Positions 3,323 to 44,673 of a stretch of DNA of 64,000 bases are shown here, piece after piece. The notes under the pieces are model-generated. The model saw only the letters and a list, made by a program, of their open reading frames with translations, had not been told where the DNA came from and ran no database searches. Every line of letters begins with the position of its first letter. Position 1 is the stretch's first letter. The DNA is from Lingula anatina (Eukaryota; Animalia; Brachiopoda), in NCBI GenBank assembly GCA_051362555.1, contig CM120648.1:4088587-4152586 (forward strand). The letters run 5' to 3'. A program made the translations under genes and the position numbers.

Positions 3323-4043
3323 GTATATCAGATTTGACGGCAGAGACAAAAGGGCCAATCAACAGGGCTAAATAAATCAGGATGTGGGGAATTACATGCC
3401 AAGGACAGGCAAAATTTATTATACACCCAAGTGCTTATTGACGCCAGCAACTCGTGCAATTTATGTTGAATTGAGAGGATCTCTTTTCTCTGCTATCTAA
3501 TGCTAAGTAATATTATTTTAAGGCCTTTTTTCAATTGCTTAATTTCTTTTCTTTACATTGTTTTTTTTCATTTATTTATTGTCAATAAATTTTGCTAAAA
3601 AAACTTATCTACTGCCTATATACAAATAACGATAAAACCTTTAAATTGTATTTAAATAGCCAAGACAATAATTTTTCCGCTTATAGAACTCCACCGACTA
3701 CTACGCCATTTGTCCATTTGACTTCGTTTGCGTCTTGTTTTCATTATTTTACCTCGGACCATCCATCCAAATTACCTGACAGCCCAGCTTGCATAAAAAT
3801 GGATACTATTCATGTCGAGGCAAAGATTATCGTACAAATAGCAACAATGCATCTTAATTCAGCCATTTCATTCCCTTAATAGCACTTGACCTGACCAAAA
3901 ATGGGGACTTGTAATGCAAATTATGGGGAAATAACAAAATCAAAAAACTTGTTTGACATTCAGATGTGACGAGAGTGATATCGTTGTACTTTCAGTAATT
4001 TTTACTGCAGTTTAATTGCCATACCACTGATACACAGTGCGCC

Positions 4044-5099
4044 ATGTTGTCTACGATCTACGCAATTCTGGTTACCCTCTGCCTCCTTCTGGCATGTAGG
4101 CCTACCTCAGTGCGAGCGCAACGGCTAAAACGTCGGTCTCTCGATCCATCTTGCTCTCTCCAACTGGCCGATGACACCCTACCTAGCCGTAACCATGACG
4201 ATGTTGTGGCTGCGGCAGCTAAATGGGCCCCAATGGTGAATTTAGCCGATGGAGAAGAATGGCGTCCCTCAAGCGTTGACTTCTTCTTAAATGAAGTTAA
4301 CTTACGTGGAGGAACACCAACAGATGTAACGTCGGCAACGCTCCCCGTGTGTAACGACGACTGCTATCTAGAAACCAAAGTGGGACTGTCCTGTGCTTCG
4401 TGCAGAGATCCCCCGGTATTTCGTGGCCAAGACCCCGCAGTCGCCCCGGTGTATGCCATCTACGAGGAGACAAACAACACTGTGAGCATAACCTACTGGT
4501 TTTTCTACCCCTACAACCGTGGGAAAAGGGTCTGCATTGGTTACTATGTGGATGTGTGTTGTGGTGAGGTATGGGGACGTTGTTTGTGTGGTAGGATAAG
4601 CACCTGTATTGGCGGATACTCCACTTTTGGGCACCATGTTGGAGACTGGGAACGGGTCGTAATAACATTCAAGGATGACAAACTGTACTCGATATATCTC
4701 TATATCCATGGATCAGAAGCTACTGCACAGTTTGGCGGAGAATTCATTTGGGACGGGCAAAGCTTCAAACAAGGTTCACGCACCGTGTCGCTGACCGAAT
4801 GCAGCCACCCGGTGATTTACTCGGCGAAGGGTTCCCACGGTTCCTGGCCAGAACCCGGGGAGCACGTATACAAGGATATCATCATGGATAAGCTGGTCGA
4901 CTCTTGCAGCGACGGCCAGGATTGGCAAACCTGGACCAACCTGAAGGTTGTCAAGAACACCGGTGCTCCCTTCACTGGCGAGTTCAGCTTCCTGAACTTC
5001 AAAGGCCGCTGGGGAAATAGAGAGTCTGAATGCACACTTCGGACAATCGGGATCGATCAGTGCATCTTGAGTAACGGTCCCACGGGTCCACTGAATTAA
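4044..5099 (+). CDS. Secreted Vps62-domain protein, single exon, 351 aa
   Basis: Hydrophobic signal peptide, RLKRR furin-like site, and the Vps62-family motifs YWFFYPYN, HVGDWE, YSAKGSH, FKGRWG and C-terminal GPTGP. Confidence 0.8.
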   Translation: MLSTIYAILVTLCLLLACRPTSVRAQRLKRRSLDPSCSLQLADDTLPSRNHDDVVAAAAKWAPMVNLADGEEWRPSSVDFFLNEVNLRGGTPTDVTSATLPVCNDDCYLETKVGLSCASCRDPPVFRGQDPAVAPVYAIYEETNNTVSITYWFFYPYNRGKRVCIGYYVDVCCGEVWGRCLCGRISTCIGGYSTFGHHVGDWERVVITFKDDKLYSIYLYIHGSEATAQFGGEFIWDGQSFKQGSRTVSLTECSHPVIYSAKGSHGSWPEPGEHVYKDIIMDKLVDSCSDGQDWQTWTNLKVVKNTGAPFTGEFSFLNFKGRWGNRESECTLRTIGIDQCILSNGPTGPLN

Positions 5100-7050: not shown

Positions 7051-8561
7051 ATGGATAAAAGAGCCACAAATGACCCAGAAAGCATGGAATATCTCACCGC
7101 AGGCAACATTCAGGTTAAGTCAGAAGCAGAAGTTTGTCAATCATGTCTTGATCATGATATAAAGAATATAAAGAAAGAAGAGGAAGACGACTGCTCCCAT
7201 GGAATTGACTTAGGTATGTTATGTGACTAGACTTGCTACAGAGACACGCACACATGCACATGCACAACACACGCACATACTTGTACTAGTACGCTTTTGT
7301 TAAACATATGGAAACAAGCTTTCTTCAGAGTTTTCATGTATGACCATATTTCTTCCGCACATTGTAATAATAAGCAGCTTGTTACGTCCACTCGCTGATA
7401 GGAACTCCAGTGCACTATTATTCCCCATTGGCAAAAATGTGATATGTACCCTGTAAAATGCAATCCTTAATGTTATGCTATAACCTTACTACAAATTACC
7501 AGGAGCCGAAAGTGACACTTGTTGAAATGTTGGTATTCATTCAAAAATAGCTCAAAATTGTTCAAATGTTGAACAGCCCATGCAACCCACTGAATTCATT
7601 CCATGCGGCGCGCGTGTGTAATTCTGACAGATTTATATGTGGATTAGCGAGTAGGCCTGGTGGGTAACAGTGTGTAATTCTGACAGATTCATATGTGGAT
7701 TAGCGAGTAGGCCTGGTGGGTAACAGTGTGTAATTCTGACAGATTCATATGTGGATTAGCGAGTAGGCCTGGTGGGTAACAGTGTGTAATTCTGACAGAT
7801 TTATATGTGGATTAGCGAGTAGGCCTGGTGGGTAACAGTGTGTAATTCTGACAGATTTATATGTGGATTAGCGAGTACATGTAGGCCTGGTGGGTAACAG
7901 TGCACGAAACTGTTGGTGCTGGGAAGTAATAATGCGGGGGCTTGATAATAGAAATTTATCATAATCTTGCTTGCGGTCCTAGAGTAATGATTGGGGGGGG
8001 GGGGGGGGAGATAATGAGCACTATGGGCCCATAGTGAAGTGGGGGACGGTAAGAGATGATTTCTAATAGTTTTATTACAGCCAAGGGAGGCATGCTCTTA
8101 ATGAAGCCTGCAATATGCAGGGCTGATCCAGTTTGTAAAGAAGTAGTTTTCCTAGTAGGTTTAAGAAGGAGGGGAAGTCCAGTTTAATGGGAGAATTTCA
8201 TTCCATGTTGTTTATTCTAAAGTTGGTGTATGTTCTTAATGATACATAATGGCAGAGAGAAAATTTCTTCATTTTTCATATTCTACCTTTTAAAAAAATT
8301 ACATATGAAGTCAGTTAAATTTTCTGTATTTATAACACATATAAATCAGAATAAACTGTTCCATATCAATTCAGGTTTTCAGCCACAGATTAAAAGGGAG
8401 ATAGAAGGAACACCATACATGGAAGAGATCAGGTCCTTTAAACAATTTCAGGAATTAGGGGTGGAGATCAAAATTGGCCAGCAATTACCAAGATGGAATG
8501 CTTTGAAAGATCAACTACAGTTGAATACACATGAAAAGTTGGCAGAATTCTTGATGGATTT
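7051..8561 (+). CDS. ZNF gene 1, shared 5' coding exons 7051-7213 (ends phase 1) and 8375-8561 (ends phase 2); the second exon encodes the conserved N-terminal module
   Basis: ATG at 7051 (MDKRATND...); donor g|gtatgt; acceptor ttcag|gt; exon encodes IKIGQQLPRWNALKDQLQLNTHEKLAEFLMD; donor tt|gtaagt; phases are compatible. Confidence 0.75.
7614..7902. repeat. Minisatellite, 56-bp unit, ~5 copies
   Basis: Unit gtgtgtaattctgacagattYatatgtggattagcgagtaggcctggtgggtaaca starts at 7614, 7670, 7726, 7782 and 7838. Confidence 0.95.
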
Positions 8562-8840
8562 GTAAGTATTAATACAAAGATTTATGTAAGATCTTATTGG
8601 TTAAATTTGGAAATTTGTGAATGGAAACAGAGTTATTTTAACCTTGTTTCCTTGTGGTTTGATTGATAAATCACATAACAATAAGCAAAAAAAAAAATAA
8701 TAATAATAATCTCACACTAGACTTGACTGATACTGTAGCAGCGATCTAATGGAAAGCTTGATACCACCTATCTTCAGTGGGGATATGAATGTGAGTGACT
8801 CAAGGAATGGTTATTTGACTGACTAGTTCAGATATAGCTA

Positions 8841-9012
8841 CAGGCCTGTAGCCAGCAATTTCAAAAGGGGGTTCTTTTTCTGAAAATGTGTGCCTTTTTC
8901 CATAAAAAACTTCACGTACCTAGATCAAATTTTACCCAGAGTTGACCTTTTCCCAGCAAAAGGGGCGGTTCTTTCAAACCCCCCCCCCCAAACCCCCCTG
9001 CCTACAGGCCTG
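8841..9012. mobile_element. MITE family A, 5-bp TSD AGCTA
   Basis: caggcctgtagccag...cctacaggcctg flanked by agcta on both sides. Confidence 0.85.
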
Positions 9013-9105
9013 AGCTAGGTATCTTCCTGAAGGCTCTGTCCAAGTAAAGATATTTCACCTCCTTTCTCTCATATTTTTATCACTATCAGACATTTTTATT
9101 TTCAG

Positions 9106-9706
9106 CTATTTTAAGCATACAAGTGAGACGGTTTCTCCTCAGTCATCTGAGATTGTTGACCCACCACCAGATAATGGAATCATAAAGAATGAAGACTACG
9201 TACTAGTAAGGTAGGCAAAAATTGGAAATGTTTTTTCTTCACTGAAGTTTATTTTAAGGCTCTGTCCCAGATATCAAAGATACTTTATATTACTTTTCCT
9301 TTTCTTTTATTAATTTTCCTTATATTTTATCCTTTTCTTTTGTCAGACTATTTTTATTATAAATTCTAGCAATTATAAGCATACAAGTGAGACCCTATCT
9401 CCTCAATCATCTGAGATTGTTGTCCCGCCACCTGATAGCAAAATCACAAAGAATGAAGACTCTGTAAGGTAGGCCGAAATTGGAAAGGTTTTTTTTCACT
9501 GAAGTTTAATTTTAGGCTCTGTCCCAGATATCATACATACTTTATCTTACTTTTCATTTATTAATTTTCCTTATATTTTATCAGACCATTTTTATTATTA
9601 TTTCTAGCTATTCTAAACATGCAAGTGAGACACTATTTCCTCAATCATCTGAGATTGTTGACGCACCACCAGATAGTGGAGTCGCAGAGAATGAAGACTC
9701 CGTAAG
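9106..9706 (+). CDS. ZNF gene 1: three tandem paralogous cassette exons, 9106-9210 (105 nt), 9370-9468 (99 nt) and 9608-9706 (99 nt), all phase 2-2
   Basis: Each has a YAG acceptor and an ag|gtaggc donor and is stop-free: YFKHTSETVSPQSSEIVDPPPDNGIIKNEDYVLV, NYKHTSETLSPQSSEIVVPPPDSKITKNEDSV, YSKHASETLFPQSSEIVDAPPDSGVAENEDSV. Confidence 0.75.
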
Positions 9707-9784: not shown

Positions 9785-9998
9785 AGACCCCATTTCCAGA
9801 GATTAGTTCGATCTACTTTAGATTGGCCTAACTCCATGGGGGTTCATGCTAAATTGCAGTCAGGCAAGCGGGCACCATAGTTAATTACCCCCTTACAGCT
9901 TTTAGTAGGCGGGACAGACGCTTAAGCCAAGCTGACAGCAATCTAGTGAGACTCCCCACAGGGATAGATCGATCTAAAAATCTATGGAAATGGGGTGT
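9785..9998. mobile_element. MITE family B (TIR AGACCCCATTYCC...); related full or partial copies at ~5340-5495, 14337-14545, 19022-19250, 21482-21710, 22963-23190, 46907-46980 and 60695-60820
   Basis: agaccccatttccagagattagttcgatc...gatcgatctaaaaatctatggaaatggggtgt; the internal 'ttaattacccc...cagct' core is shared by the other copies. Superfamily uncertain. Confidence 0.7.
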
Positions 9999-12381: not shown

Positions 12382-12580
12382 TGAATTAAGTGTCCATTAC
12401 TGTCTACCCCTGTCAATCATTTCTTCAAAACCAACTGTAAGCCTACTAAAACTTTCACATTTTATAGGAACTATGAACATTTCACTATTCAATCTCAGCA
12501 CAAAAAAAGGCAAAAAGAATTACATAAATCCAAAAAGAATTTAAATGTCATTATTAAGTGTTGGCCTTTCTCAATTTCAG

Positions 12581-13481
12581 GCACACTGCACACATCATAC
12601 ATAAGTGTGAAGTATGTGGAAGGCAGTTTAATACAAAACCAAACCTACTTTATCATGCACGAGTTCACAGCAAAAGAAAGTTTAGCTGCAATATTTGTGG
12701 CATGTCCTTCAAACGCCAAGTTCACGCCAAGAATCATAAGCTGTATACACACTCCACAGAAAAGAATTTTGAATGCCCTACCTGCGAGAAGAAATTCAAG
12801 CGTTATGGCAGTATGAAGAGGCATATGAACCTCCATGATGACACACTGTCAGATATCAAGTGCTGCCAGTGGGGATCGAGTTCAAGCGGAGAAGTGGAAC
12901 ACACCCAACTTCCTGAAGAGAACCCATCAACTTTGACTGCTAAGAAACCCAGATATCAAAGGCGATCGATAGTTGCAGATATGTTTCCATCTGATGTTAT
13001 CATGCCTGAAAATTTGTTACCTCCGAAGGTCAATCCTTCAGTTGCCAAGACATTCAAGGAACACTGGAACTGCATAAGGACAAGGTCTTCAAGGGGTAAC
13101 AGGCTGCAAGACTGGTACAACTTTCGACTGACCACCTTTCAGCCAAATGACCTTCGAGACCATCTAGTTCCGATTTTAGAAGAACAGCACTCGCTTTTTA
13201 AAATCAATGTTTCATTTGGTTTTATTTTAAGAAACAGCAAGACAGGAGCCTTGCGATACCAACACACAAGCAGCAACAGTCACTGTATTCTGAAAAAGCC
13301 AGCTAAGATCCAATATCGTGAGGATATCGATGAGATATTTGGAGATATATCTCTTCAAGATATTCTTGGGTGCGCTCAACAAGATCAACCCAGTGCACAG
13401 TGGGTGGTTGAGATGGTCACAAATGTAGTGTTTTATGTAACAAAGTTAAAACCAATACTTAAATATGTCCCTAACAGTTAA
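12581..13481 (+). CDS. ZNF gene 1 terminal exon T1 (type A): 3 C2H2 fingers plus Polinton/adintovirus PolB N-terminal-like domain
   Basis: Acceptor ctttctcaatttcag|g, phase 2; CEVC/CNIC/CPTC fingers; HWNCIRT...QDWYNFRL...FKINVSFGFILRN...QPSAQWVVEMVTNVVFYVTKL; aataaa at 13673. Confidence 0.8.
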
Positions 13482-14033
13482 CAGGCTAAGAATTCTTTCT
13501 GCAAATATAACAACAAAAGCAATGTGTTTGCAGATTATGGCTAAAAGCAAATACAAAATAGTGAATTGTATGATTTATATTACACTCATTAGAACATTGT
13601 CACTGTTAGTATTTGACACTATTCTTGTATCTTGAAAACCACAACACACGCAGGCATGCACCAGTTTGTTTTAATAAATTGAAAATAAGACTCGTTTTAA
13701 CTGACAGTAATTCACTTAAAATCAAACAAGTCCCAGTGTTAAGTTTTTTTTTTTTCATTTTTTTTTTTTTGTAATCATACAGTCTTCTGCTGTGTCATTT
13801 TACTTGAATAAACAAAGAAGTTGCCAAGAGAAAATCCGTTATCTCATATTGCATGGCCTACTGTGAATATGTTTCATTTACTATGCAAAGTTATCATGGT
13901 TGGTCTGTTTCATAAGAGTTACATAAAACATATTGCTATGTTTTTCCTTGCAAACCTAGTGTTATAAAGGTTTAGGTTGTGTAATGTTTCACAATGATTT
14001 AAAAGAATAAATTAATCCAATTGTAATATTGAT

Positions 14034-14270
14034 AACAAGAAAAGCACTCAGAGAGCGCAGACCTCGGTCAAGGCAACAATTTTTTTTTTATTATTATTGA
14101 TTATTGATTGATTGATGATCCGGATCAACACCAAAAACTAATCATCTCTTCCTTGGCGCACTTCTGATAGTTCCTGAAAATTTCATTAAAATTGGTCCAT
14201 AACTTTTTGAGTTATGTTGATGACAGACAGACGAACAGGGGTGAAAACATAACCTCCTTGGCGGGGGTAA
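14034..14270 (-). mobile_element. Non-autonomous Helentron/HINE-like element
   Basis: aacaagaaaagcactcagagagcgcagacctc...acagacagac...aacctccttggcgggggtaa (terminal hairpin plus microsatellite). Absent from the paralogous sites at ~18955 and ~21415, which show the empty site. Confidence 0.7.
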
Positions 14271-14756
14271 TAAAATACTCCTGTTAGCTGCTTGCAGCTG
14301 GTAGCTTCTTACTCCTGCTTTGGTTTGTTGGTTTAAGACCTCATTCCTGTCCCAAAATCAATCTAGAAGGAAAGACCCATCTCCAAGGGAATTCTTGCTA
14401 AATGGCTTTCAGCTTAAGCAGCTTAGATGTCTGTCACACCTACTGAAGCTGCTAAAACAGTTAATTACCTACTAACAGCTTCGGTAGGCATGCCAGACGT
14501 CAGATCCACTAAAGCTGAGTGCAATTAAGCAAGAAAGCCCTCGGAAAGCGTGTTTAGACCAGAGCAATTTCTATTTCATTTTTGCAAGGATCTCACTTGT
14601 TTAACAGACCAATTCCATTTAAGATGGTGTCAGAGAAAGTTACATTTGGTCTGCCAACCAGCTGAAATCAAGCATTTTTTACTCTTCAATCTCGGCACAA
14701 ATTAACCAATAAGAATTTACATGCAAGTTAAAAGTGTGAGCCATTCTCAATTTCAG

Positions 14757-15711
14757 GCACAGTGCAAGCATCATTCACAAATGTGAAGTATGTGGAAAGC
14801 AGTGTGATTCAAAATCAAACCTACTTCATCATGTAGATGATCACCGCAAAAGAAAATTTCACTGCGAAATCTGCGGCATGTCCTTCAAACGCTTAAGTTA
14901 TGTCAAGAATCATAAGCTTTCTAAACACTCCACGGAAAAGAATTTTGAATGCCCTACCTGCGGGAAGAAATTCAAGCGTAAAGACAATATGAAGAGACAC
15001 ATGCGCCTCCATGATGTCACACCTTCAGAATGCCCTAAATGCAATAAGAAATTCAAGGATTATGACAGTTTGAAGAATCACATGCGCCTCCATGATCTCA
15101 AACCTTCAGATATCAAGTGCTGCGAGTGGGGATCAACTTTGACCTCTGAGAAAGCCAGATATCAAAGGCGATCTGTAGTTGCCGAATTGTTTCCAGCTGA
15201 TGATGTTATCATGCCTGACAATTTGTTACCTCCAAATGTCAAGCCTTCAGTTGCCAAGACATTCAAGGAACACTGGAACTGCATAAGGACCAGGTTTTTA
15301 AGGGGTAACACCAAGTCTTCTAGGGGTAACAGGCTGCAAGACTGGTATAACTTTCGACTGACCGCCTTTCAGCCAAATGACCTTCGCGACCATCTGGTTC
15401 CGATCTTAGAAGAACAGCGCTCACTTTTCAAAATCAATGTTTCATTTGGTTTTATTCTAAGAAACAACAGGACAGGAGCTCTGCAATATCAACACACAAG
15501 CAGCAACAGTCACTGTCTTTTCAAAAAGCCAGCTAAGATCCAATATCGTGAGGATATCGATGAGATATTTGGAGATGTGTCTCTTCAAGATGTTCTTGGG
15601 TGCGCTCAACAAAATCAACCCAGTGCACAGTGGGTGGTTGAGATGGTCACAAATGTTGTGTTTTATGTTACAAAGCTAAAACCAAAACTCAAATATGACC
15701 CCAAATGTTAA
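14757..15711 (+). CDS. ZNF gene 1 terminal exon T2 (type B): 4 C2H2 fingers plus PolB N-terminal-like domain
   Basis: Acceptor ttctcaatttcag|g, phase 2; 40 stop-free codons upstream of the ORF-track ATG at 14878 supply finger 1 and half of finger 2. Confidence 0.8.
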
Positions 15712-16371
15712 CAGACAAAGAATTCTTCTTGCAAATATAACAACAAAAGCAATATGTTTGCAGATAATGTCTAAAAGCAAATACAAAATGTACCTTAATC
15801 TGCTGGTTTAAAGAAAATGCACTGAAATGTTATGCTTGTGATAGATTTTGTCTGTGAATATAACATGATGGAAGCATTGTTTTGCAGTTTTGATGACTTT
15901 AGTGTATGATTTGGACTTTATAAGGTTCACCCATAGTTATTGCTAGTTTATGTTTGCTTGTTATTTTGTATTTCATTTACCTTATTTCACCATTTGTCTA
16001 CTTTACCAAATGTAATTAATCTACTAGGTTATTTTATTAAATAAGAATAGCAAAATTTTGGCATCCAAGTCAAACTACATTGGATAGACAGGATATACAT
16101 ATTGTTTATTTGATGTCATGTTTAGAGATATCTTTGTTCAGGAAGAGTTAATTGTATGATTTATACAAAACTCATTAGAACACTCACCATTGGCTTTTGA
16201 CACTGTTCTTGTATTGTGAAAATCACAATGCATGAAGGCATGTACAAGTTTATTTTAATAAATTGTTTAACAGACCAGTACCATTTACTATGGTGTCTGA
16301 GTAAGTTACATTTGCTCTGCCAACCAGCTGAAATAAAGCAATTTTAACTCTTTAAATTCTGCACAAATTAA

Positions 16372-17000
16372 AGTCATAATAACTCTTCGTTTTGGCCAAA
16401 AATTGGATTTTCCTGGAAAAAACGGCAATTATCCCGTACTTACCAATGGCCAACGACCCCATTCCTGCATTCAAAGTTAATCCAGGTTTTTTTTCCTAAA
16501 CGTACGGTTTTTTGTTAAAATCTCTTAAGAGATTTTAACTGACGGAGCTCTCTCTGACATTGCAAAGTCACTGGTGACCTACTTAAAACCGCGGGAAAAG
16601 CAGACAACAACAACACTATATAAGGTTCATGAGATATATTCGTCTTTTTGTTAAAAATGCATTTATATCCGCAATGTGTGCCATTCTGGGCTTTTCGTTA
16701 TCCGACGCACTGTACAAAAACTCGCAACTTACGTCTGCGTCTGCACTAATGCGTTTGGCGCCATGTTATTTTGGTCTCGAATGAACGCGAGAATCCGCGT
16801 GACACCATTACGTCATTAGCAACAAATGCACTTGTCGACCGGAAAAAAGGCATCGTAAGCCCTCTTGACAAGCACAGATTTTAGTTTTCCTACAATAACG
16901 GCCGTTTTAGTGGTAAAATACAATAGAATATATTTCCATGCGTTTTTTACAATGTATTTCATGCGGATTTTTGAATCTCAAAGGAAGAGTTATTATTGCT
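16372..17000. mobile_element. Non-autonomous TIR element with TTAA TSD (Kolobok-like)
   Basis: ttaa|agtcataataactcttcgttt...aaaggaagagttattattgct|ttaa; the empty site cacaaattaaccaa is present in the paralogous units (~14697, 19481, 21942). Confidence 0.85.
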
Positions 17001-17059
17001 TTAACCAACTAGAATTTAAATGCCAGTTGCAATTAAGTGTAAGACTTTCTCAATTACAG

Positions 17060-18044
17060 GCACAGTGCAGGCATCATACACAAGTGTCAAGTATGTGGAA
17101 AGCAGTTTAATACAAAATCAAACCTACTTCATCATGCAGATGATCACCACAAAAAAAAATTTAACTGCGAAATCTGTGGCATGTCTTTCAAATGCTCAGA
17201 TTATGTCAAGAATCATAAGCTTTCTAAACACTCCATGGAAAAGAATTTTGAATGCCCTACCTGCGGGAAGAAATTCAAGCGTTATGACAGTATGAAGAGG
17301 CATATGCACCTCCATGATGACACACCTTTAGAATGCCCTAAATGCAAGAAGAAATTCAAGCGTAATGACATTATGAAAAATCACATGCGCCTTCATGATG
17401 TCACACTTTCGGAAATCAAGTGCTGCGAGTGGGGATCGAGTACAAGCAGAGAAGTGGAACACACACAACTTCCTGAAGAGAACCCATCAACTTCAACTGC
17501 TAAGAAACCCAGATATCAAAGGCGATCGGTAGTTGCAGATATGTTTCCATCTGATGGTGTTATCATGCCTGACAATTTGTTACCTTCGAAGGTCAATCCT
17601 TCAGTTGCAAAGACAATCAAGGAACACTGGAACTGCATAAGGACCAGGTCTACGCGGGGTAACAGGCTGCAAGACTGGTATAACTTTCGCCTGACCACCT
17701 TTCAGCCAAATGACCTTCGAGACCATCTGATTCAGATCTTAGAAGAACAGCGGTCACTTTTCAAAGTCAATGTTTCATTTGGTTTTATTCTAAGAAACAA
17801 CAAGACAGGAGCTCTGCAATATCAACACACAAGCAGCAACAGTCACTGTCTTCTGAAAAAGCCTGTTAAGATCCAATATCGTGAGGATATCGATGAGATA
17901 TTTGGAGATGTGTCTCTTCAAGATGTTCTTGGGTGCGCTCAACAAAATCAACCCAGTGCACAGTGGGTGGTTGAGATGGTCACAAATGTTGTGTTTTATG
18001 TAACAAAGCTAAAACCAATACTTAAATATGACTCCAACTGTTAA
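17060..18044 (+). CDS. ZNF gene 1 terminal exon T3 (type A): 4 C2H2 fingers plus PolB N-terminal-like domain
   Basis: Acceptor tttctcaattacag|g, phase 2, in frame with ORF 17181-18044; aataaa at 18322. Confidence 0.8.
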
Positions 18045-19541
18045 CAAGCAAAGAATTATTTCTACAAATATAACAGCAAAAGCAATGTGTTTGCTGATTA
18101 TGTCTAAAAGCAAATACTAAATGTACCTTAATCTGCTGATTTTAAGAAAATGTAATGTTTTTTGATAGGAGATTTGTCTGTGAATATAATATGATGGAAG
18201 CATTGTTTTGCAGTTTTGATGACCTTAGTGTATGATTTGGACTTGATTAGGTTCACTCATAGTTATTGCTAGTTTATGTTTGTCTGTTATTATATATTTC
18301 ATTTTCACAGATGTTGCATTCAATAAACAGATAAAACTTTTACTGTATCATGAATATAAATTATGGAAGATATACCTCATTTCATAATCTAGGTAATTTG
18401 ATAAATAAAAATAGCGAAATTTGGCATCCAAGTCAAACTACCGTACATTGGATAGGCAGGATATACATCTTGTTTATTTTGATGTCATGTTTAGAGATAT
18501 CTTTGTACAGGAAGAGTTAATTGTATGATTTATACAAAATTCATTAGAATATTGTCACTGGTGGCTTTGGCAGTGTTCTTGTATCATGAAAACCAGTATG
18601 CATGAAGGCATGTACAAGTTTATTTAATAAATTGAAAATTATACGGATTTAAACTGACAATTACTTATTTAAAAGCAAACAAAACCCAGTACTATTTATT
18701 ATTTATTTATTTATTTTTTTTTTTTCATTTTTTTATCATACAGTCTTCTGTTGTGTAATTTTTACTTGAATAAACACAGAAGTTGCCAAGACAAAATGTC
18801 TGGTATCTCAAACTGCATGACCTACTGTGAATATGCAATGTTATCTAGGTTAGTCTGTTTCATAAGAGTTACATAAACCATATTGCCATGTTTTCCCTTG
18901 TATATTGATATGAAGAGTTAGGTTGAATTAATGAATTAATCCAATTGTTATATTAATAATAAAATGCTCTTTAGCTGCTTGCAGCTCTTAACTTCTTACT
19001 CCTGCTTTGGCTTATTGGTCCAAGACCCCATTCCCATACTTAAATTAATCTAGAAGGATAGACCCATCTCCAGGGGAATTTTTCTAAATTGCATTCAGTT
19101 TACCGTAAGCGGCTAAGATGTCTGGCATGCCTACTGAAGCTGCTAAACAATAATTAATTACCTCCTAAGAGCTTCAGTAGGCATGCCAGACATCAGAGCC
19201 ACTAACGCTGAGTGCAATTAAGCCAGAAAGCCCTCGGAGATGGGTGGATCTGGGTATGTGAACAGGTTATAAAATCTGTTTTTTACTACTAACCATCACC
19301 TTTCACCCTCGGGTGGAATGGCAGCAGCAACAGCATGTTTAGACCAGAGCTATTTCTATTTCATTTTTGCAAGGATCTCACTTGTTTAACAGACCAATTC
19401 CATTTACAATGGTGTCAGAGAAAGTTACATTTGGTCTGCCAACCAGCCGAAATGAAGCAATTTTAACTCTTCAAACTCAGCACAAATTAACCAACAAGAA
19501 TTTACATGCAAGTTAAAAATGTAAGCCATTTTCAATTTCAG

Positions 19542-20496
19542 GCACAGTGCACGCTTCATTCACAAATGTGAAGTATGTGGAAAGCAGTTTATTACAAAAT
19601 CAAGCCTACTTCATCATGTAGATGATCACAGCAAAAGAAAATTTCATTGCGAAATCTGTGGTATGTCCTTCAAACGCTCATTTCATGCCAAGAATCATAA
19701 GCTTTCTAAACACTCCACGGAAAGAAATTTTGAATGCCCTACCTGCAGAAAGAAATTCAAGCGTAAAGATGTTATGAAGAGACACATGCGCCTCCATGAT
19801 GTCACACCTTCAGAATGCCCTAAATGCAAGAAGAAATTCAAGGATTATGACAGTATGAAGAATCACATACGCCTCCATGATCTCTCACCTTCAGATATCA
19901 AGTGCTGCGAGTGGGGATCAACTTTGACCTCTGAGAAAGCCAGATATCAAAGGCGATCAGTAGTTGCTGAATTGTTTCCAGCTGATGATGTTATCATGCC
20001 TGACAATTTGTTACCTCCAAATGTCAAGCCTTCAGTTGCCAAGACATTCAAGGAACACTGGAACTGCATAAGGACCAGGTTTTTAAGGGGTAACACCAAG
20101 TCTTCGAGGGGTAAAAGGCTGCAAGACTGGTATAACTTTCGACTGACTGCCTTTCAGCCAAATGACCTTCGCGACCATCTGGTTCCAATCTTAGAAGAAC
20201 AGCGCTCACTTTTCAAAGTCCGTGTTTCATTTGGCTTTATTCTAAGAAACAACAAGACAGGAGCCTTGCAATATCAACACACAAGCAGCAACAGTCACTG
20301 TATTCTGAAAAAGCCTGCTAAGATCCAATATCGTGAGGATATCGATGAGATATTCGGAGATGTGTCTCTTCAAGATGTTCTTGGGTGTGCTCAACAAGAT
20401 CAACCCAGTGCACAGTGGGTGGTTGAGATGGTCACAAATGTTGTGTTTTATGTAACAAAGCTAAAACCAAAAGTTAAATATGACCCCAAATGTTAA
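19542..20496 (+). CDS. ZNF gene 1 terminal exon T4 (type B): 4 C2H2 fingers plus PolB N-terminal-like domain
   Basis: Acceptor ttttcaatttcag|g, phase 2, in frame with ORF 19663-20496. Confidence 0.8.
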
Positions 20497-22002
20497 CAGA
20501 CAAAGAATTCTTTTTGCAAATATAAGAACAAAAGCAATATGTTTGCAGATAATGTCTAAAAGCAAATACAAAATGTACCTTAATCTGCTGGTTTGAAGAA
20601 AATGCACTGATATGTTTTGCTTATGATAGATTTTGTCTGTGAATATAATATGATGGAAGTATTGTTTTGCAGTTTTGATGACCTTAGTGTATGATTTGGA
20701 CTTGATTAGGTTCACTCATAGTTATTGCTAGTTTATGTTTGTCTGTTACTATATACTGTATTTCATTTTCACAGATGTTGCATTCAATAAACAGATAAAA
20801 CTTTTACTGTATCATGAATATAAATTATGGAAGATATACCTCATTTCATAATCTAGGTAATTTGATAAATAAAAAAAGCGAAATTTGGCATCCAAGTCAA
20901 ACTACCGTACATTGGATAGGCAGGATATACATCTTGTTTATTTTGATGTCATGTTTAGAGATATCTTTGTACAGGAAGAGTTAATTGTATGATTTATACA
21001 AAATTCATTAGAATATTGTCACTGGTGGCTTTGACAGTGTTCTTGTATCATGAAAACCAGTATGCATGAAGGCATGTACAAGTTTATTTAATAAATTGAA
21101 AATTATACGGATTTAAACTGACAATTACTTATTTAAAAGCAAACAAAACCCAGTATTTATTTTTTATTTATTTATTTTTTTTTTTTCATTTTTTTATCAT
21201 ACAGTCTTCTTTTGTGTCATTTTACTTGAATAAACACAGAAGTTGCCAAGACAAAATGGCTGGTATCTCAAACTGCATGACCTACTGTGAATATGCAATG
21301 TTATCTAGGTTAGTCTGTTTCATAAGAGTTACATAAACCATATTGCCATGTTTTCCCTTGTATATTGATATGAAGAGTTAGGTTGAATTAATGAATTAAT
21401 CCAATTGTTATATTAATAATAAAATGCTCTTTAGCTTCTTGCAGCTCTTAACTTCTTACTCCTGCTTTGGCTTATTGGTCCAAGACCCCATTCCCATACT
21501 TAAATTAATCTAGAAGGATAGACCCATCTCCAGGGGAATTTTTCTAAATTGCATTCAGTTTACCGTAAGCGGCTAAGATGGCTGGCACGCCTACCGAAGC
21601 TACTACACAATAATTAATTACCTCCTAACAGCTTCAGTAGGCATGCCAGACGTCAGAGCCACTAACGCTGAGTGCAATTAGGCCAGAAAGCCCTCGGAGA
21701 TGGGTTGATCAAAGTATGAGGAGAGGTTCTAAAATCTCTCTTTTACTACTAACCATCATCTTTCACCCTCGGGTGGAATGGCAGCAGCAACAGCATGTTT
21801 AGACCAGAGCTTTTTTTTATTTTATTTTTGCAAGGATATCACTTGTTTAACAGACCAATTCCAGTTAAGATGGTGTCAGAGAAAGTAACATTTGGTCTGC
21901 CAACCAGCCGAAATGAAGCAATTTTAACTCTTCAAACTCAGCACAAATTAACCAACAAGAATTTACATGCAAGTTAAAAATGTAAGCCATTTTCGATTTC
22001 AG

Positions 22003-22936
22003 GCACAGTGCACGCAATCACAAATGTGAAGTATGTGGAAAGCAGTTTAATACAAAATCAAGCCTACTACATCATGCAGATGATCACCGCAAAAGAAAAT
22101 TTCTCTGCGAAATCTGCGGCATGTCCTTCAAACGCTCAATTCATATCAAGAATCATAAGCTTTCTAAACACTCCAAGGAAAGAGATTTTGAATGCCCTAC
22201 CTGCAGAAAGAAGTTCAAGCGTAAAGACAATATGAAGAGACACATGGGCCTCCATGATGTCACACCTTCGGAATGCCCTAAATGTAAGAAGAAATTCAAA
22301 GATTATGACAGGATGAAGAATCACATGTGCCTCCATGACGTCACACTTTCAGATATCAAGTGCTGTGACTGGGGATCAACTTTGACCTCTGAGAAAGCCA
22401 GATATCAAAGGCGATCGATAGTTGCTGAATTGTTTCCAGCTGATGATGTTATCATGCCTGACAATTTGTTATCTCCAAATGTCAATCCTTTAGTTGCCAA
22501 GACATTCAAGGAACACTGGAACTGCATAAGGACCAGGTTTTTAAGGGGTAACACCAAGTCTTCGAGGGGTAAAAGGCTGCAAGACTGGTATAACTTTCGA
22601 CTGACCGCCTTTCAGCCAAATGACCTTCGAGACCATCTGGTACCGATCTTAGAAGAAAAGCGCTCAGTTATCAAAATCAATGTTTCATTTGGTTTTATTC
22701 TAAGAAACAACAAGACAGGAGCCTTGCGATACCAACACACAAGCAGCAACAGTCACTGTCTTCTGAAAATGCCAGCTAAGATCCAATATCGTGAGGATAT
22801 CGATGAGATATTCGGAGATGTGTCTCTTCAAGATGTTCTTGGGTGTGCTCAACAAGATCAACCCAGTGGAGAGTGGGTGGTTGAGATGGTCACAAATGTT
22901 GTGTTTCATGTAGCAAAGCTAAAACCAGTACTTTAA
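22003..22936 (+). CDS. ZNF gene 1 terminal exon T5 (type B): 4 C2H2 fingers plus PolB N-terminal-like domain, with a slightly earlier stop
   Basis: Acceptor ttttcgatttcag|g, phase 2, in frame with ORF 22121-22936 (one-codon deletion near the start). Confidence 0.75.
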
Positions 22937-23382
22937 TATGACCCCAACTGTTAACAGGCTAAGGCCCCATACCCATACACCCCATTCTCATAGATTAGAT
23001 CGACCTACATTGGATCGACCTAAATCCCTGGGGGTTCACGCTAAATAGCTGTCAGCCGGGCGGACACGAAAGTTAATTACCCCTTAAAGCTTGTAGTAGG
23101 CGGGGACGGACACTTAAGGGGGATTATCTGACAGTAATCTAGTGAGACTCCCCGCGGTGATAGATCGATCTAAAAGTTGTGAGAACAGACCCATAGACAC
23201 CACCTGCCTATGTAACAAAACCCAACTCTATGGGGATTCTCACCAAGTCATTCAGCTTTAAAAATTTGCCTCCGTCTTGTGTAAAGGAAAATGCAGAAAA
23301 AGCTGGTGATTATGTATGTATGTTGGAAACAAGAGATTGTCATTCCGTTAAGCTGATTGCTTAGTATAGGGAAACATTCACA

Positions 23383-23668
23383 TCGAGAAGAGCCAAGGTC
23401 TAGTAAGGCTGCGACCTATATATGGTGGACCTACATGAAAGGTAGACCGCTTTATCCATTAATGGTCTCTCTGCCTCACATACGCCTCCCCGCATGTTGT
23501 CCCTGCAGGGGCACACTTATTAAATCTCAGCTCAATTCAACCGGTCAAGGAACAACGCGTGGGGAGGTATGTGAGAGGCAGAGAGACCATTATAGGATTA
23601 GCGGTCTTCCTTTCAAGAAGATCCACCATATTCGGGTCGCAGCCTTACTAAACCTCGACTCTTCTCGA
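23383..23668. mobile_element. Foldback/MITE with ~125-bp imperfect inverted repeats
   Basis: tcgagaagagccaaggtctagtaaggctgcgacc...ggtctctctgcctcacatac pairs with gtatgtgagaggcagagagacc...ggtcgcagccttactaaacctcgactcttctcga. Confidence 0.75.
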
Positions 23669-24890
23669 CGTGAATCCTCCCATTCAGGTTTTTAAAAAAT
23701 TGGTCTCATCCTCGTGTTAAGTGAAATGCAGAAAAAAAAGCTGTTGATTACACAAGTATATATGTTGGAAACAAGAGATTGTCATTCCGTTAAGATGATT
23801 GCATAGTATAGCTACGGTAAACATGTGCATGAACATTCAAGTTTTAACTTTGCCAGACTTGGTCTTATTGCTGTGGCATAACATCAGTAGCAATGACATC
23901 TATATTTATCATATTTGCATAGTAATAATGCACACATCTCTGTTAAGTTTTGATTTTGATTTCTTAAAGGTATTCATATGTCACACATTTTTTAATGTCT
24001 CGGGCAGGAATTTTTTTTTATTTTTTATTTATTTATTTATTTATTTTTTTTGTAAGTATAACTTGAGGATGCTCCCTTTTGGTATGTGATGAGCTGAGCA
24101 ATTCATTTCTTTGCTCCACCTGGTTTTCCTGCTGTAAAACAAATTGTCAAAGGCTTTAAGAGGAGTCTCTTATTGTGCAGTCGAACAGGATAGTATTTCA
24201 ATCAACATTGCTCAAAATTTTGTACTGACAGAAATGTGTGTTCATCTTTTAACATCTCTTCTCAATTTGTTTGTACAATTGAATGGAATAAAGCTGCCAA
24301 CTGGCATCCACTCTACAGAATCGACGCATATATGTAACATTGGAAAGTTGAAGCATATTGCTCTAGGAAATGTTATTATGGATTATCTGAATTGTAATTG
24401 GTTTTATGTGAAAATTATGCTGTTTTTATGATCTTATTTGTAATTGGACAAAGCAAAGTGTATATGACCTATCAAATCATTATAAAACACAACTCGTGCA
24501 AAACTCCAGGTCCAATCAATTTCATATAAGACACTAACTTAAGTGCCGTCTTTATTTTTAATAACAAATTCACTCTTCACATCTAGAACTGTGCGCAATC
24601 CCCAAATAGTTAGACAACAACCAAGTCATACATATTTTAGGGGTGTATTATTCAATCAAATGTTGGAAATGTAGTATTTTTAATTTTTTTTATCAAATAC
24701 TGTCAAACGCATCATGTTCATGTGACCAATGGTTTTAAGGGAGCTTTTATTAACATAAAAACAAATCTTCAAACTTTCAATAAAGTAAAAAAATAAAATA
24801 GAATAAAAATAAAATGTATAATTTTGTTCATGCAAATTACGCACTTCTTGTTTATGATATAACTGGTGCTAAGTAAATTCACTTCATAAT

Positions 24891-27800
24891 TTATGATTTT
24901 ATGTCCTTGTGAACAGCTTCATGTTTAACACATTCTCTCTCATAAGCGAAAACTTTCCTGCAATATTGGCAGTGGAAGGTCCTCACATTGGTGTGGATCC
25001 TCTCGTGGCTGTTACGTGTACCACTTTGTGTGAACCTCTTTCCGCAAAACCTACACTTGAAAGGCTTTTCTCCCGTGTGAACCCATTCGTGGTTAATAGC
25101 AGCATGTTTCTGCACAAAGTGTCTCTCACAGAAACGGCATTTATGTGGCCTTTTTCCAGCATGGGTCATTTCATGCAATATCAAGTTTCTCTTCCGAACT
25201 AATGCCTTTCCACAAACCTTACAAATAAATGGCCTTTCTCCTAAGTGAGTTCTTTCATGAAGAGTACATTTATTCATTGTAGGAAAGTCTTTACCACAGT
25301 ACTGGCATATGTACATTTCTGGTTTGTAGGCCTTTTTATGAGTGCGTTCATGAGCCTCTCGATCCTTTTCATAAACTGAACACTTACATTTTTTACAGTA
25401 ATACATCATTTTTGACACAGATTTGTGCTTTATTTTGTGTAAGTTGAGAAGCGCTAAGTAGCTAAACGTCATTCCACAAGCATCACAGATGAAAGGCCCA
25501 TTTCCTTGTAACTTTTGAACCATCTTCTTGGTGTCAAATATCTTCTTTTTGGTGTCAACTATCTCCTTTTTGGTGTCAACTATCTCCTTTCTGGTGTCAA
25601 TATTAGATTTTTTTGGTTTCAATATAGAAATCCAAGTAACACTAGACTTTTTCTCTGAATCCTTTAAAAGAGGCTCGTCTGTAATTTTGTTTTTCAAGGT
25701 AAGTTGTGGCTGAGAGACAAATGTGCCAATATCATGTGTGTTATTTTGATCTGGCAAGAATTGTCCTCTTTGAGTAGATTTCAATGAGCTTGCTAGAACC
25801 TTATTGGAAGAAACACTTGATATTATAGTAGTCTTATTGGTTGCTGTCTTGATAGGTATTTCACTCCAAACTACATTTGGTCGAGTAGAAACAGTGAAAG
25901 GGCTTTTTAAATCGACTTCTTTGTTAGGCATTGAATCTCCTTTTTGGGTTGAATTAGGACGCTTTGGAGCCCAAACAATCAAGTATTTCTTTACTGTATC
26001 TTTAACTCCACTAGAACCAACCTGTTTCATCGATGCATGTTGGTCAGTTTGTGTTGTTGGTATGATCTGTATACTTTTAGATGCTTCTTGTTGTCCTTTG
26101 GGATCAGAGACAGCTTGAGTAAAGGAATTAATGTGATTTGAATCTTGCTCCCTGCTAGTGTCAGAGACGGCTGGAGTACAGGAATAACCGTAATCTGAAT
26201 CTTGCTCTCTTCTGTGATCTAAATCTTCCTCTCCTCTGGTGTCAGTGACTGTTTCAGAAATGGAGGTATTTTGCTCTGGCTCTTGCTGCATTCTGGTGCA
26301 CAATTTACTTTGAGAATTGGAACTGCAATGTGTTGAACTGTGCATCCCTATGGTGTTATTTATGACTGGATTAAGAATATTGTCCCCACCATTACAGTAG
26401 CTGAAATAGAAAATATTAGTCAAAAGTTGTATATTCATTTATCAAACAGTATCATAAAGATAACATAACTGTTTTACTCTAAGTTTCTAATCTTAATTTC
26501 CATTAACTTTGAAGTTACATTTCAAGCAAGCTTGGATTCCATATAACACAAAACCACTTCTACTTGTTACTCACATGACTAAAATTAAGTCAAAATGCCA
26601 AGTTTGAAGGAGCAAACCAGATCAATCAATCCATCAGCCAAAAAAGAAACTTTAAAACTGCACCTCTTTCAAATTTTTGGTCAACCTAGTTATCCCCCCC
26701 CCCCTCCCCCAGTATATAAAAGTTGATAGTTGATGTTACTCCAGTACTGTACTCTGTGCACATTACATTATGTACGGACCTAGCTACACACACAACTGTA
26801 TACACTGGTGGAACAATTTAACAACTGAGACAAGTTTTAACATTCAAGGGTTATTAAAAAAATAATTTAATTTAAATACATCAGGTTTCAAGCCAGTACA
26901 CAGGATGGTTTCATGGGATTTGAATGAACTGCCCTTTTTTTGTGGGAAAAGGTCTTGTCTAGGTAAATATTGATCCAGGTGCACATAGATTTGAAATTAA
27001 AACTCAATGCCCCTTCTCCGAAAAAGAGAAATAACTGGTAATGGGCTGCTTTAAGTATACAAATTGTCAGAATTAACCAACAAAGATGATGGATATGCAT
27101 TAAATGGCGGCACTTACTAGTCCATCAAAAATTTTGCCAGGTTTTCATTTGTTTCCAATTGTAGTCTATCTTTTAAAGCATTCCACCTGGGCAATTCCTG
27201 GCCAATGTTTATCCCTATTCCTACTTCTTGGAATTGTTCCAAGGGCCTGATGACATTTTCCCCTAACGGTGTTTCTTCTTTATCCAATTCCAACTGAAAA
27301 CCTGATTTGATGAAAAATAGAAGACAAAGTAAGGGGAAGAGTTCCTAATATGGGGTAATTCTAATTTAAAATAAGTTTATTTTACCAAAACACTACTTTT
27401 TCATCACTTTTTTCTTCAAATGGTTAAAATTTGATTTAAACTAGTCAAATCAGCCCTGCTTTGTTAAGCCAATTTAAGTTAGTTTCAGCATATGGCTACA
27501 CCAGTTCAAACTTCGCTATGAAGAACATGAACCATTCTACTTTGTAATAATTGTTTGAATCCACCTCTGCCTGTTCACAATCCAAAGCATGCCACTTTTC
27601 AAATTAGCATCATGCAATACTGAAAATATGTCAACAAAATCACTGATGAATTTGTACCATTTCAGTGAAGTCATAGAACTTCATGCGCGCTCTACCCAGG
27701 TAAATCAAGAACTTGTGGGAGAAAATGCGTAATAAAATCACAAAGGTTGTAGGGGCATACTTGAGTCAATACCTTCAGGACATTCTTCCTTTTCCTCTCC

Positions 27801-27908
27801 CCCTTTTATCTCTAAACTCCCTGTAAAATGAAAATTGTGGCCTGCCTCATAGTGTTCTTCATTCAGAAATTCTGCAGTTTTTTGGTCATCAGTGGCTTCT
27901 TCATCCAT
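24891..27908 (-). CDS. ZNF gene 2: exons 27908-27761, 27301-27118 (N-terminal module) and 26400-24891 (7 C2H2 fingers, some joined by TGEKP-type linkers)
   Basis: ATG at 27908 (MDEEATDD...), phase-1 and phase-2 junctions with GT/AG; INIGQELPRWNALKDRLQLETNENLAKFLMD; fingers CDAC, CKKC, CQYC, CKVC, CRFC, CRFC, CQYC. Confidence 0.8.
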
Positions 27909-30468: not shown

Positions 30469-30939
30469 TCATACAAAATGTATAAACATATAGTCCACGA
30501 TATTGAATTCATTGATACTTACATCTGAGTTCTGGACAAGGGGAAATACAACTTCTTGGCCCACATCTGGAACACAGTTTCCTACCACGATGGCTTTTCT
30601 AGTCCTACTCTCCGTCGCTTCGGCCCATGTCGCACTTGAAATACTGTTTGAAGTTCGCCTGGTTTTAACCGTTTTGCGTGACTTTGGTAAATCAACTGAT
30701 GGTACTGCATCAATAGAATTACTATCTTTCCTGTTTGGCTTTCCGGATTGGAAGTGACAGCCACAGACTTTGAAGTTGTCAGTTATATCTTTCAATGAAA
30801 TATCCGCACGACCAGTGGCACTAATCCATAACAATTTCGAACGTCTGTCCTTTGGAAATACAAAAAAACTACAAACATTGTCTTTTCTACCTCTCCGGTG
30901 GCTGCAGTTATACACGCAGCAGTTATCATGGCCACCCAT
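30469..30939 (-). mobile_element. THAP-domain ORF, probably a truncated transposase 5' end or a stand-alone THAP exon
   Basis: MGGHDNCCVYNC...FFVFPKD...W...VCGCHF...DAVPSV is the C2CH THAP signature with an AVPT-like box; no intact DDE domain is visible downstream. Confidence 0.7.
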
Positions 30940-31705
30940 GACCGATAAATGCAAAGAGCGGGAGATCTACTTTACATCGTGACAGCCGTCCATGAAGGCC
31001 CCTTCTACTCTTGCCCCCTGAGAAACAGTCCCGCACAAAATGGCGCGAACTGCGCATGCTCTCGATTTCGTGGAAAACACTCTATTTAACTCACAGGTTT
31101 GGTCAATCTTACTAAAAATGCAGGTTGAGTTCGAAAATCAGCATAATCGGGCCATTATTTTAGAAGCTATGCTGTTTTTTCACATTTCCTCAGATTCAAT
31201 TCTTAGGCATGTTAACAGTCTCATTATTCTGAGTATGTGTCCTACTGTATTACATAATGCTAAAAGGCATAATGACCATCAATTTGATGAGCCGGTGGCT
31301 CCCGGGCTGCAGTCTTTCCCATTTGCTCCGTTTGAGTTCATCCACAGGGAACCGAAAAAACGAACACTTTTCCCTCCTACTTCGGTGACTACATCTAAAA
31401 ACGAAGCAGCAAACCATGTTGGCAGCTTTAGTTCTTTTAACTGATTGAAAGAAGCAGTCGTGATGCGTTAGGTGAGATTACTGATCTTGTGCAATATCGA
31501 TTGATAATTGTTTTCCACAGTAGGCTTATAAAAAAATAATGTTTTTTCTGGGTGTGGGAGTTTGTGAAAATCTCGTTTTTAGAAATTGGTGAGGCTTATT
31601 ATTTTTTATTTGGGTACATTTACTAGTGTGTCCGGGTATAATATTGCGTTTCCCCTGATAGTTATTCTGTTGGCGTTCGAATGAATGAATTTAATGTTGA
31701 AAATC

Positions 31706-44405: not shown

Positions 44406-44673
44406 ATTACTGGAGACACTGTAAATTATATAATCAGTATGGCGAGGATAATGAATTCTGTGAAATGGCATCATGTAGTGCATAACAATTTCCCGTATTA
44501 AAAGCCAAATGACGATTTTGACAAGATTGCTAAAGGACACCTAAGACGAAAATAATTATAATGCGTTGTATGGTCGAATATAAGCATGATTATTTCAGAT
44601 TCAATTTAGTTGCTTCTTGTATGAGCACCCGAAGTGAGCTGAGACATAAAGGTAAGCAGGACGGTTTTAAAAG

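Follow-up and report, generated by a model that had tools for sequence, protein, structure and literature searches.

What are five tandem copies of one zinc finger-bearing exon doing in a brachiopod genome, where did their shared C-terminal domain come from, and does a host gene use them? The window analyzed here is a 64,000-nucleotide stretch of Lingula anatina DNA (GCA_051362555.1, contig CM120648.1, positions 4,088,587 to 4,152,586); all coordinates below are window positions.

A shared host head followed by five finger-domain exons

The L. anatina RefSeq entry "ZNF729" matches this locus. Five plus-strand frames (12558-13481, 14740-15711, 17043-18044, 19525-20496, and 21986-22936) are free of internal stops, and each exon within them encodes three or four C2H2 fingers, then a linker, and then a domain of about 133 amino acids (aa). 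A sequence-only reading of this DNA had described a conserved ~130-aa domain kept intact five times in a feature spanning 13040 to 22930. The domain is indeed present in all five frames, and the five exons do lie there, but the true extent of the feature is larger, with common 5′ exons at 7051-9706. The features are as follows (TP, terminal protein).

7051..7213, + strand: host exon 1; ATG, acidic, two SUMO-type psi-K-x-E motifs; agrees with RefSeq model P0003; donor GTATGT
8375..8561, + strand: host exon 2; N-terminal domain common to three adjacent zinc-finger paralogues
9106..9210, + strand: host exon 3; phase 2-2, Ser/Pro-rich repeat
9370..9468, + strand: host exon 4; duplicate of exon 3
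9608..9706, + strand: host exon 5; duplicate of exon 3; phase-2 donor that suits all five downstream acceptors
12581..13481, + strand: exon C1; Polinton-derived; 3 fingers, linker, TP domain at 13053-13451; predicted priming position (13395-13397) is Ala
14757..15711, + strand: exon C2; 4 fingers; TP domain at 15262-15681; predicted priming position (15625-15627) is Ala
17060..18044, + strand: exon C3; 4 fingers; TP domain at 17616-18014; predicted priming position (17958-17960) is Ala
19542..20496, + strand: exon C4; 4 fingers; TP domain at 20047-20466; predicted priming position (20410-20412) is Ala (Gly in the RefSeq allele)
20673..20709, + strand: possible linking mini-exon of 37 nt; weak splice sites; the RefSeq model links C4 to C5 through it
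22003..22936, + strand: exon C5; 4 fingers; TP domain at 22505-22924; predicted priming position (22868-22870) is Gly

A CAG acceptor in identical phase precedes each frame (12581, 14757, 17060, 19542, and 22003). The C5 stop lies six codons before that of the other copies, and repeats take the place of its 3′ flank. The frame list for 11.5 to 24.8 kb holds no further long frame. The paralogue at 24891-27908 likewise has a phase-2 finger exon as its last exon. The domain of host exon 2 weakly resembles a ZNF692-type N terminus (atlas lead, 0.83; bar, 0.9), and a Pfam search of this exon returned no family; a weak atlas row prompts the guess that it is a ribbon-helix-helix dimer. Among the proteins of the collection searched, P0003 was the sole model from this locus, with neither other isoforms nor brachiopod orthologues.

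Polinton origin of the domain

A search with the domain returned 884 relatives (E ≤ 1e-3), the named ones being from cnidarians, sea cucumbers, and amphioxus. DNA_pol_B_2 (PF03175) was present in 84 of 120 long relatives, among the matches listed (hand count), and was passed by 5 of 56 protein relatives of 300 aa or more. The relatives are thus N termini of long DNA_pol_B_2 proteins, and one related locus (L030) carries the Polinton gene set (i.e., protein-primed polymerase [pPolB], A32 ATPase, adenain-like protease, and rve-chromo integrase). Both results had been anticipated by the sequence-only reading, which likened the domain to the pPolB N terminus and set this similarity check beforehand. 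The domain itself had no match in Pfam (full exons matched finger families plus noise), PDB sequences, or the ESM Atlas, nor did scans of viral_contigs give one. On sequence comparison, we conclude that the domain originated as the N terminus of a Polinton protein-primed polymerase.

That the fingers may also derive from the donor had been suggested as well, and this has moderate support. An unbroken alignment with a Polinton-type frame runs from finger 2 to the domain end (33% over 296 columns), and the helix code seen most often among donor fingers (R/D/N/R; 12 of 126) is kept by finger 3 of two copies; fingers 1 and 2 lack the helix pattern commonest in donors.

In a tree of the 71 rows with near-complete domains (remaining matches left out), ~1.1 substitutions per site separate the copies from their nearest relatives, so that extinction of the donor family is possible; the stem to the nearest Polinton relatives measures 0.72 substitutions per site. 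Divergence of the domain from its nearest relative is about 55%.

Each exon ends at the TP/vOTU boundary, 4 to 10 residues past the last strand of the domain and ahead of the donor's vOTU region, in agreement with the claim that the frame stops just before the exonuclease/polymerase part. A tblastn search of 11 to 25 kb with 11 homologues found finger and TP matches alone, with no vOTU, exonuclease, or polymerase remnant. The truncation is unremarkable by itself, since in 6 of 35 locus rows, too, the frame stops no more than 25 residues from the domain. The same holds for 40 of 158 protein matches, although ten that were checked lay mostly on contigs shorter than 3.2 kb, and locus L001 ends at the domain while the near-identical L002 to L004 run on. 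On these sequences, it is conceivable that finger-TP was already a gene of its own in the donor.

Terminal-protein identity

The structure model of the domain (pLDDT, 88.9) has a four-stranded sheet and two helices, as in the LF/PAD of Y-family polymerases. Rows 2 to 7 of a fold search were Y-family little-finger domains (rmsd, 2.8 to 4.0 over 87 to 99 residues), with Z scores of 5.0 to 5.4 that are below the tool's noise level (about 8) and with an unrelated top row. In the model of a relative (P0005), residues 42 to 161 are little-finger-like and residues 168 to 310 are OTU protease-like (Z up to 8.9); Foldseek gave no match for P0005 at E ≤ 1e-3, its OTU and Y-polymerase rows being weak until realigned. 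This layout (TP, then vOTU) is the one given for Polinton pPolB in the available text of 10.1101/2024.03.18.585575, and an OTU motif comes next in 24 of the 35 locus rows that reach the domain end. Fold and position before vOTU both support the claimed terminal-protein region; as judged from sequence and model, the domain is a TP, and in the donor it immediately precedes the vOTU protease.

Loss of the predicted priming residue

According to the available text of 10.1101/2024.03.18.585575, the linking residue lies in the loop that leads into the last strand, and its sequence contexts are variable; from that text, we infer which column holds it. At this predicted priming position, all 124 long relatives (and 250 of 252 rows) have Ser/Thr, and all five copies have Ala/Gly. 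The Arg three places before it, present in 123 of 124 long relatives, is Gln in 5 of 5 copies. Of the 21 other columns conserved at 80% or more, 20 are kept. The five copies are therefore likely to be priming-dead, as predicted from sequence.

This loss, which the sequence-only reading did not notice, fits a decoy or restriction role, but it also fits plain DNA binding or any other nonpriming role. The Tyr in the LRYQH stretch was also considered as the priming residue and was rejected: its column is variable in the relatives, and the paper locates the residue in the loop that precedes the final strand.

Continued priming of DNA synthesis by way of a neighboring Ser, with a Polinton or host polymerase, is very improbable. 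All five copies have a Ser immediately before the changed position, and this Ser might substitute, in keeping with the variable contexts. Where relatives have Ser/Thr at that place, however, the following position is still Ser/Thr in all 11 rows that have a residue there; the conserved Arg is gone as well, and no polymerase is encoded nearby.

Selection among the copies and possible function

Among the paralogous copies in this one genome, the TP domain is under purifying selection (dN/dS [omega], 0.34; LRT, 15.6; p = 7.7e-5), which answers the dN/dS check proposed for it. Omega is 0.95 for the whole finger region and 0.61 for the linker, neither different from 1. The ratio of nonsynonymous to synonymous changes is 26:26 in the TP domain and 20:3 at finger helix positions. 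The contact residues of the fingers are the fastest varying, with 20 changes in 20 helix columns versus 44 in 96 other finger columns (p = 0.004 to 0.033). The selection test may be distorted by gene conversion, because the finger and TP trees differ. Domestication of the captured exon, as had been proposed, is supported by the purifying selection and by the phase-matched splice sites.

We tentatively favor the reading that a host zinc-finger gene took up the 5′ end of a Polinton polymerase and that its five copies, probably alternative last exons, encode priming-dead DNA-binding proteins that would attach to Polinton ends and silence or block them. A Polinton would have inserted into the last intron of the host gene, its finger-TP frame coming to stand where other family members have their phase-2 last exon. 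The priming loop would have been altered before the exon was amplified, because the change is common to all copies. The head exons, with four SUMO-type motifs in total, would supply repression. The fingers would read DNA sequence, different contacts in each copy covering different element families, while the little-finger-like TP would grip DNA or DNA ends and be unable to accept the first nucleotide; the protein would thereby occupy origins or promoters at element ends. On sequence grounds, the gene product is likely a domesticated DNA-binding regulator and is possibly aimed at Polinton ends.

Somewhat unlikely, in our judgment, is that the copies share this origin and domestication but act in the host as ordinary transcription or chromatin factors that have acquired new targets; the TP would then be an accessory domain for binding DNA or protein, and Polintons would play no further part. 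The long stem to the Polinton relatives and the helices of fingers 1 and 2 are consistent with such factors, which all of the selection data fit equally. The fast change at finger contacts, however, resembles that of zinc-finger families that silence transposable elements, as described in the available text of 10.1101/2022.11.29.518450, and the donor code retained in finger 3 of two copies also argues for continued involvement of Polintons. Rather unlikely is that the virus's replication primer has been turned on the virus itself, i.e., that a priming-dead TP decoy with viral fingers, in a last-exon array on a repressor head, blocks Polinton protein-primed replication.

Splicing and integrity of the copies

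Joining the head to each of the five copies at canonical sites gives predicted open in-frame products of 517 to 545 aa. From this sequence arrangement, the copies are likely used as alternative last exons on one host head. AATAAA is not commoner on the sense than on the reverse strand (2.95 versus 2.77 per kb), and polyadenylation signals are uninformative. A reading as five independent genes was rejected because head exons are absent between the copies.

The copies could instead be chained in one long protein, with finger-TP units linked to the head through the 37-nt mini-exon. P0003, which lists no alternative ends, has this form for C4 and C5 (exon 5 joined to C4, then C4 to C5), and further mini-exon copies (15888-15924 and 18214-18250) follow C2 and C3, keeping the frame on paper. 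Such chaining is nonetheless improbable: it needs weak donors (GTTAAC and GTTCAC), in contrast to the strong donors of the head exons; every copy has its own stop; C1 lacks the mini-exon; and the RefSeq junction is not reproduced letter for letter by the window sequence. Chaining concerns gene structure only and is compatible with either function.

We give still less credence to a decayed Polinton fragment that was amplified in tandem and has no working gene, its frames being open through recent duplication and gene conversion. Identity between spacers reaches 96%, truncation is frequent among Polinton frames, and omega in the fingers and linker would suit decay. Against it stand the purifying selection on the TP domain and the retention of 20 of 21 conserved columns despite the domain's divergence. 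Gaps between copies in the exons are whole codons throughout, whereas 6 of 7 indels between two noncoding spacers are not multiples of three, and the C4 and C5 frames are open in the RefSeq allele too.

Comparison with known systems

The Lingula domain resembles the TP (D1) of Polinton/Maverick pPolB in sequence family, little-finger/PAD-like fold, and pre-vOTU place in the donor, and its exon end coincides with the TP/vOTU cut as placed in the available text of 10.1101/2024.03.18.585575. It differs in being fused to host exons without vOTU or polymerase, in the change from Ser/Thr to Ala/Gly in the loop, and in its five tandem copies. Unlike a Polinton/Maverick element, the locus lacks vOTU, exonuclease, and palm domains (tblastn, 11 to 25 kb). 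The stand-alone TP of a Stylophora element, as the same source has it, sits inside an element, unlike that of Lingula.

The apparent gene structure is like that of KRABINER-type host-transposase fusions (10.1101/2020.05.07.082677, available text), with an element exon in the last intron of a zinc-finger gene, host head exons, and purifying selection. Unlike in KRABINER as described there, the captured part is a replication primer protein with fingers rather than a transposase, and the case is an invertebrate one, without KRAB, amplified to five exons in one gene. KRAB-ZNF and FiNZ families (10.1101/2022.11.29.518450, available text) share the clustered genes, the common N-terminal domain, and what appears to be fast variation at base-contacting residues; the Lingula exons differ in having only three or four fingers, apparently element derived, and a conserved C-terminal viral domain.

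Captured transposase domains are already well documented; of a captured protein-priming TP, our search of the open-licence literature found no case. If expressed, the gene would show a host putting to use the replication primer of an extensive group of DNA viruses, and it would be a candidate Polinton defense; a host antiviral system against Polintons is put forward as a hypothesis in the available text of PMC9683012. The copies also allow the Polinton TP structure predicted in 2024 to be tested on natural variants, which have lost the one near-invariant hydroxyl of the predicted linking loop and kept the rest. As for the donor clade, a Vsr-like insert in close relatives (weak Pfam match, L018) makes the VSR-containing pPolB2 Polintons of marine invertebrates a candidate (10.1101/2023.08.22.554363, available text), although Lingula, unlike these elements, kept the 5′ end alone.

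Polinton origin of the terminal-protein domain

Five tandem exons each consist of a single intron-free frame with three or four zinc fingers, a linker of 50 to 70 aa, a ~133-aa domain (terminal protein [TP]), and a stop codon:

12581-13481 (+), copy C1
14757-15711 (+), copy C2
17060-18044 (+), copy C3
19542-20496 (+), copy C4
22003-22936 (+), copy C5

The TP domain had no match in Pfam, PDB sequences, or the Atlas. A full HMMER scan identified 884 relatives (closest, 47% identity), and the resemblance to the Polinton/adintovirus PolB N terminus proposed in the sequence-only reading was supported: 5 of the 56 matches of at least 300 aa had a passing DNA_pol_B_2 hit, and a profile search yielded 833 long proteins, with PF03175 in 84 of 120 among the matches listed (hand count). 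Among the matches listed, the long relatives that are named belong to cnidarians, sea cucumbers, and amphioxus; several bear the mistaken label of zinc-finger protein. Proteins P0004, P0170 to P0172, and P0178 carry the Polinton TP domain and are annotated "zinc finger and SCAN domain-containing 22" or "MSN4"; Pfam lacks a model of this domain. The same reading had named as support long polymerase matches in loci with integrase, ATPase, or capsid genes, and one locus with integrase and ATPase genes was found. Beside a homologous polymerase, this locus, L030, encodes an A32 ATPase, an rve-chromo integrase, a weakly matching adenain-like protease, and a 427-aa frame without a name; it is a Polinton. 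A TATA-binding-protein frame next to the integrase (L030:16060-16650, minus strand) may be host flank or cargo. Derivation of the Lingula domain from a Polinton TP is virtually certain, and the exons are probably domesticated.

The viral structures that best matched the model of the Lingula TP (pLDDT, 88.9) were a C2H2 protein of an adintovirus (E = 1e-4) and the PolB of a MELD virus (E = 8e-3). Matches to Y-family little-finger domains (Z, 5.0 to 5.4) were under the noise level of the tool and ranked below one unrelated row. In the related protein P0005, residues 42 to 161 match this fold, and residues 168 to 310 match OTU proteases (Z up to 8.9). This is the arrangement of TP and vOTU, the protease domain that follows it, described by Krupovic et al. 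(10.1101/2024.03.18.585575), who assign the linking residue to the loop that leads into the final strand and put a cut between TP and vOTU. The Lingula exons stop 4 to 10 residues past the last TP strand, in line with the sequence-only reading, in which the frame ends before the downstream part of the donor. Of vOTU or polymerase, tblastn with 11 homologues showed no remnant between 11 and 25 kb.

One loop column was Ser/Thr in all 124 relatives of at least 900 aa, a set with redundancy, and across all rows in 250 of 252; its position and conservation point to it as the putative linking residue. Copies C1 to C5 have Ala, Ala, Ala, Ala, and Gly there. Three places earlier, Arg (123/124 relatives) is replaced by Gln in 5/5 copies. 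The losses appear clustered in the predicted priming loop, because these residues are gone while 20 of 21 columns (conserved at ≥80% among 50%-identity representatives) are kept, the lost one being that Arg. The main caveat for loss of priming is a Ser one place before the loop column, invariant in the five copies.

In the midpoint-rooted tree, the copies grouped together with a bootstrap of 100, on a stem of 0.72 and with a depth of 0.16, and this clade was nested among Polinton-type sequences (support of enclosing groups, 80 to 86). The pattern points to one capture, long change, and then recent amplification.

Gene structure

Upstream, five host exons with canonical splice sites form a shared head:

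7051-7213 (+), head exon 1
8375-8561 (+), head exon 2
9106-9210 (+), head exon 3
9370-9468 (+), head exon 4
9608-9706 (+), head exon 5

Exons 3 to 5 (9106-9706) are tandem duplicates, each phase 2-2 and skippable without frame loss. The five units, spaced ~2.2 to 2.5 kb apart, each begin after CAG in phase 2, and joining the head to any of them gives an open product of 517 to 545 aa. No head exons were found between units within the array. The surroundings are a zinc-finger gene cluster with a common N-terminal exon, and the neighbouring minus-strand paralogue likewise ends in a phase-2 finger exon; the units therefore occupy the usual last-exon slot of the family.

RefSeq XP_013416348 (P0003; "zinc finger protein 729," Lingula anatina) matches the head exons and copies 4 and 5. 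The window probably represents another allele or assembly, because it differs from this model at 5 residues in C4 and 3 in C5. At 20410-20415, in the priming loop, the RefSeq C4 allele reads Gly-Glu like C5, which may reflect gene conversion, polymorphism, or an assembly chimera. P0003, the sole database model, joins C4 to C5 via a 37-nt mini-exon, also present after C2 and after C3; the donors are weak. Protein searches found no further isoforms or orthologues of the locus. Poly(A) signals had no strand bias. An imperfect 300-bp palindrome (23376-23675) directly follows C5, and a MITE-like repeat lies at 22979-23175 and again at 9787-9979.

Source of the fingers

The fingers, too, had been suspected to come from the donor frame, which now appears likely for the whole exon and best supported for fingers 3 and 4. 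Fingers lie upstream of the TP in 57 of 158 relatives (median distance, 56 residues), and C1 forms one unbroken alignment with the Polinton-type locus L003 that begins at finger 2, spans the linker, and ends with the TP. Asp occupies helix position +2 in 47/126 donor fingers, 9/19 exon fingers (not independent), and 1/20 other window fingers. Finger 4 (14947-15110 and equivalents), lacking in C1, arose within the exon by duplication of finger 3 (~82% over 83 nt).

In the related loci L001 to L004, the Polinton-type polymerase frame lacks an in-frame ATG ahead of the first finger, and just upstream of it lies a TAG that resembles a phase-0 acceptor (L001:421-436 and L003:1014-1029; also L002 and L004). 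These frames are probably spliced, and elements of this kind may therefore carry a splice acceptor with them; it is not the Lingula splice site.

Selection and possible function

Pairwise counting between copies put dN/dS at 0.25 (TP), 0.52 (fingers), and 0.59 (linker). Codon models gave 0.34 for TP (132 codons; LRT, 15.6; p = 7.7e-5), 0.95 for fingers (88 codons; p = 0.85), and 0.61 for the linker (51 codons; p = 0.24). Gaps within exons were whole codons, whereas 6 of 7 spacer indels were not. Trees of different regions disagreed among copies, pointing to gene conversion, so that the TP p-value carries less weight. C5 looks the least constrained. It is highly likely that the exons are maintained as a gene.

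Finger helix positions carried 20 amino-acid versus 3 silent variants, and position +2 of finger 2 differed in each of the five copies. The head exons contain four SUMO-type motifs, a motif type linked to repression. Tentatively, we favor a role in which the finger-TP proteins would bind at Polinton ends and silence or block the elements. This is favored because the head carries these motifs, because the donor protein of the fingers would have had to work at the ends of the element, and because contact residues vary among copies, like those of TE-silencing families as outlined in 10.1101/2022.11.29.518450. That the proteins are instead regulators with host targets is somewhat less likely.

The locus is probably a form of mobile-element exon capture: the route resembles transposase capture as outlined in 10.1101/2020.05.07.082677, but the captured part differs, being a Polinton TP. 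Openly accessible literature yielded no host-captured Polinton TP or account of this locus; subscription journals, Repbase, and preprint supplements could hold a precedent. Term look-up in PMC11131425, 10.1101/2024.12.17.628972, and 10.64898/2026.10.13.758929 found neither a host-captured Polinton TP nor this locus. The abstract of PMC9683012 hypothesises a host antiviral system against Polintons, and 10.1101/2023.08.22.554363 deals with VSR-containing pPolB2 Polintons of marine invertebrates.

Other features of the window

Three neighbouring zinc-finger genes carry paralogues of head exon 2, each with an unnamed N-terminal domain of strand-helix-helix size; the remaining frames were assigned by Pfam:

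3999-5099 (+), Vps62-like frame
27120-27311 (-), exon-2 paralogue
30469-30966 (-), THAP-domain frame
34080-34286 (+), exon-2 paralogue
40513-40620 (+), exon-2 paralogue
44671-45813 (+), intron-less rhodopsin-type receptor
59503-63876 (+), TTI1 exons

For the exon-2-type domain, the atlas gave a weak lead to the ZNF692 type and the structural comparison a weak RelB/DinJ row; it may serve dimerisation in a zinc-finger family that has yet to be described. A repeat-rich stretch (31022-33703) gives several similar frames without a Pfam match.
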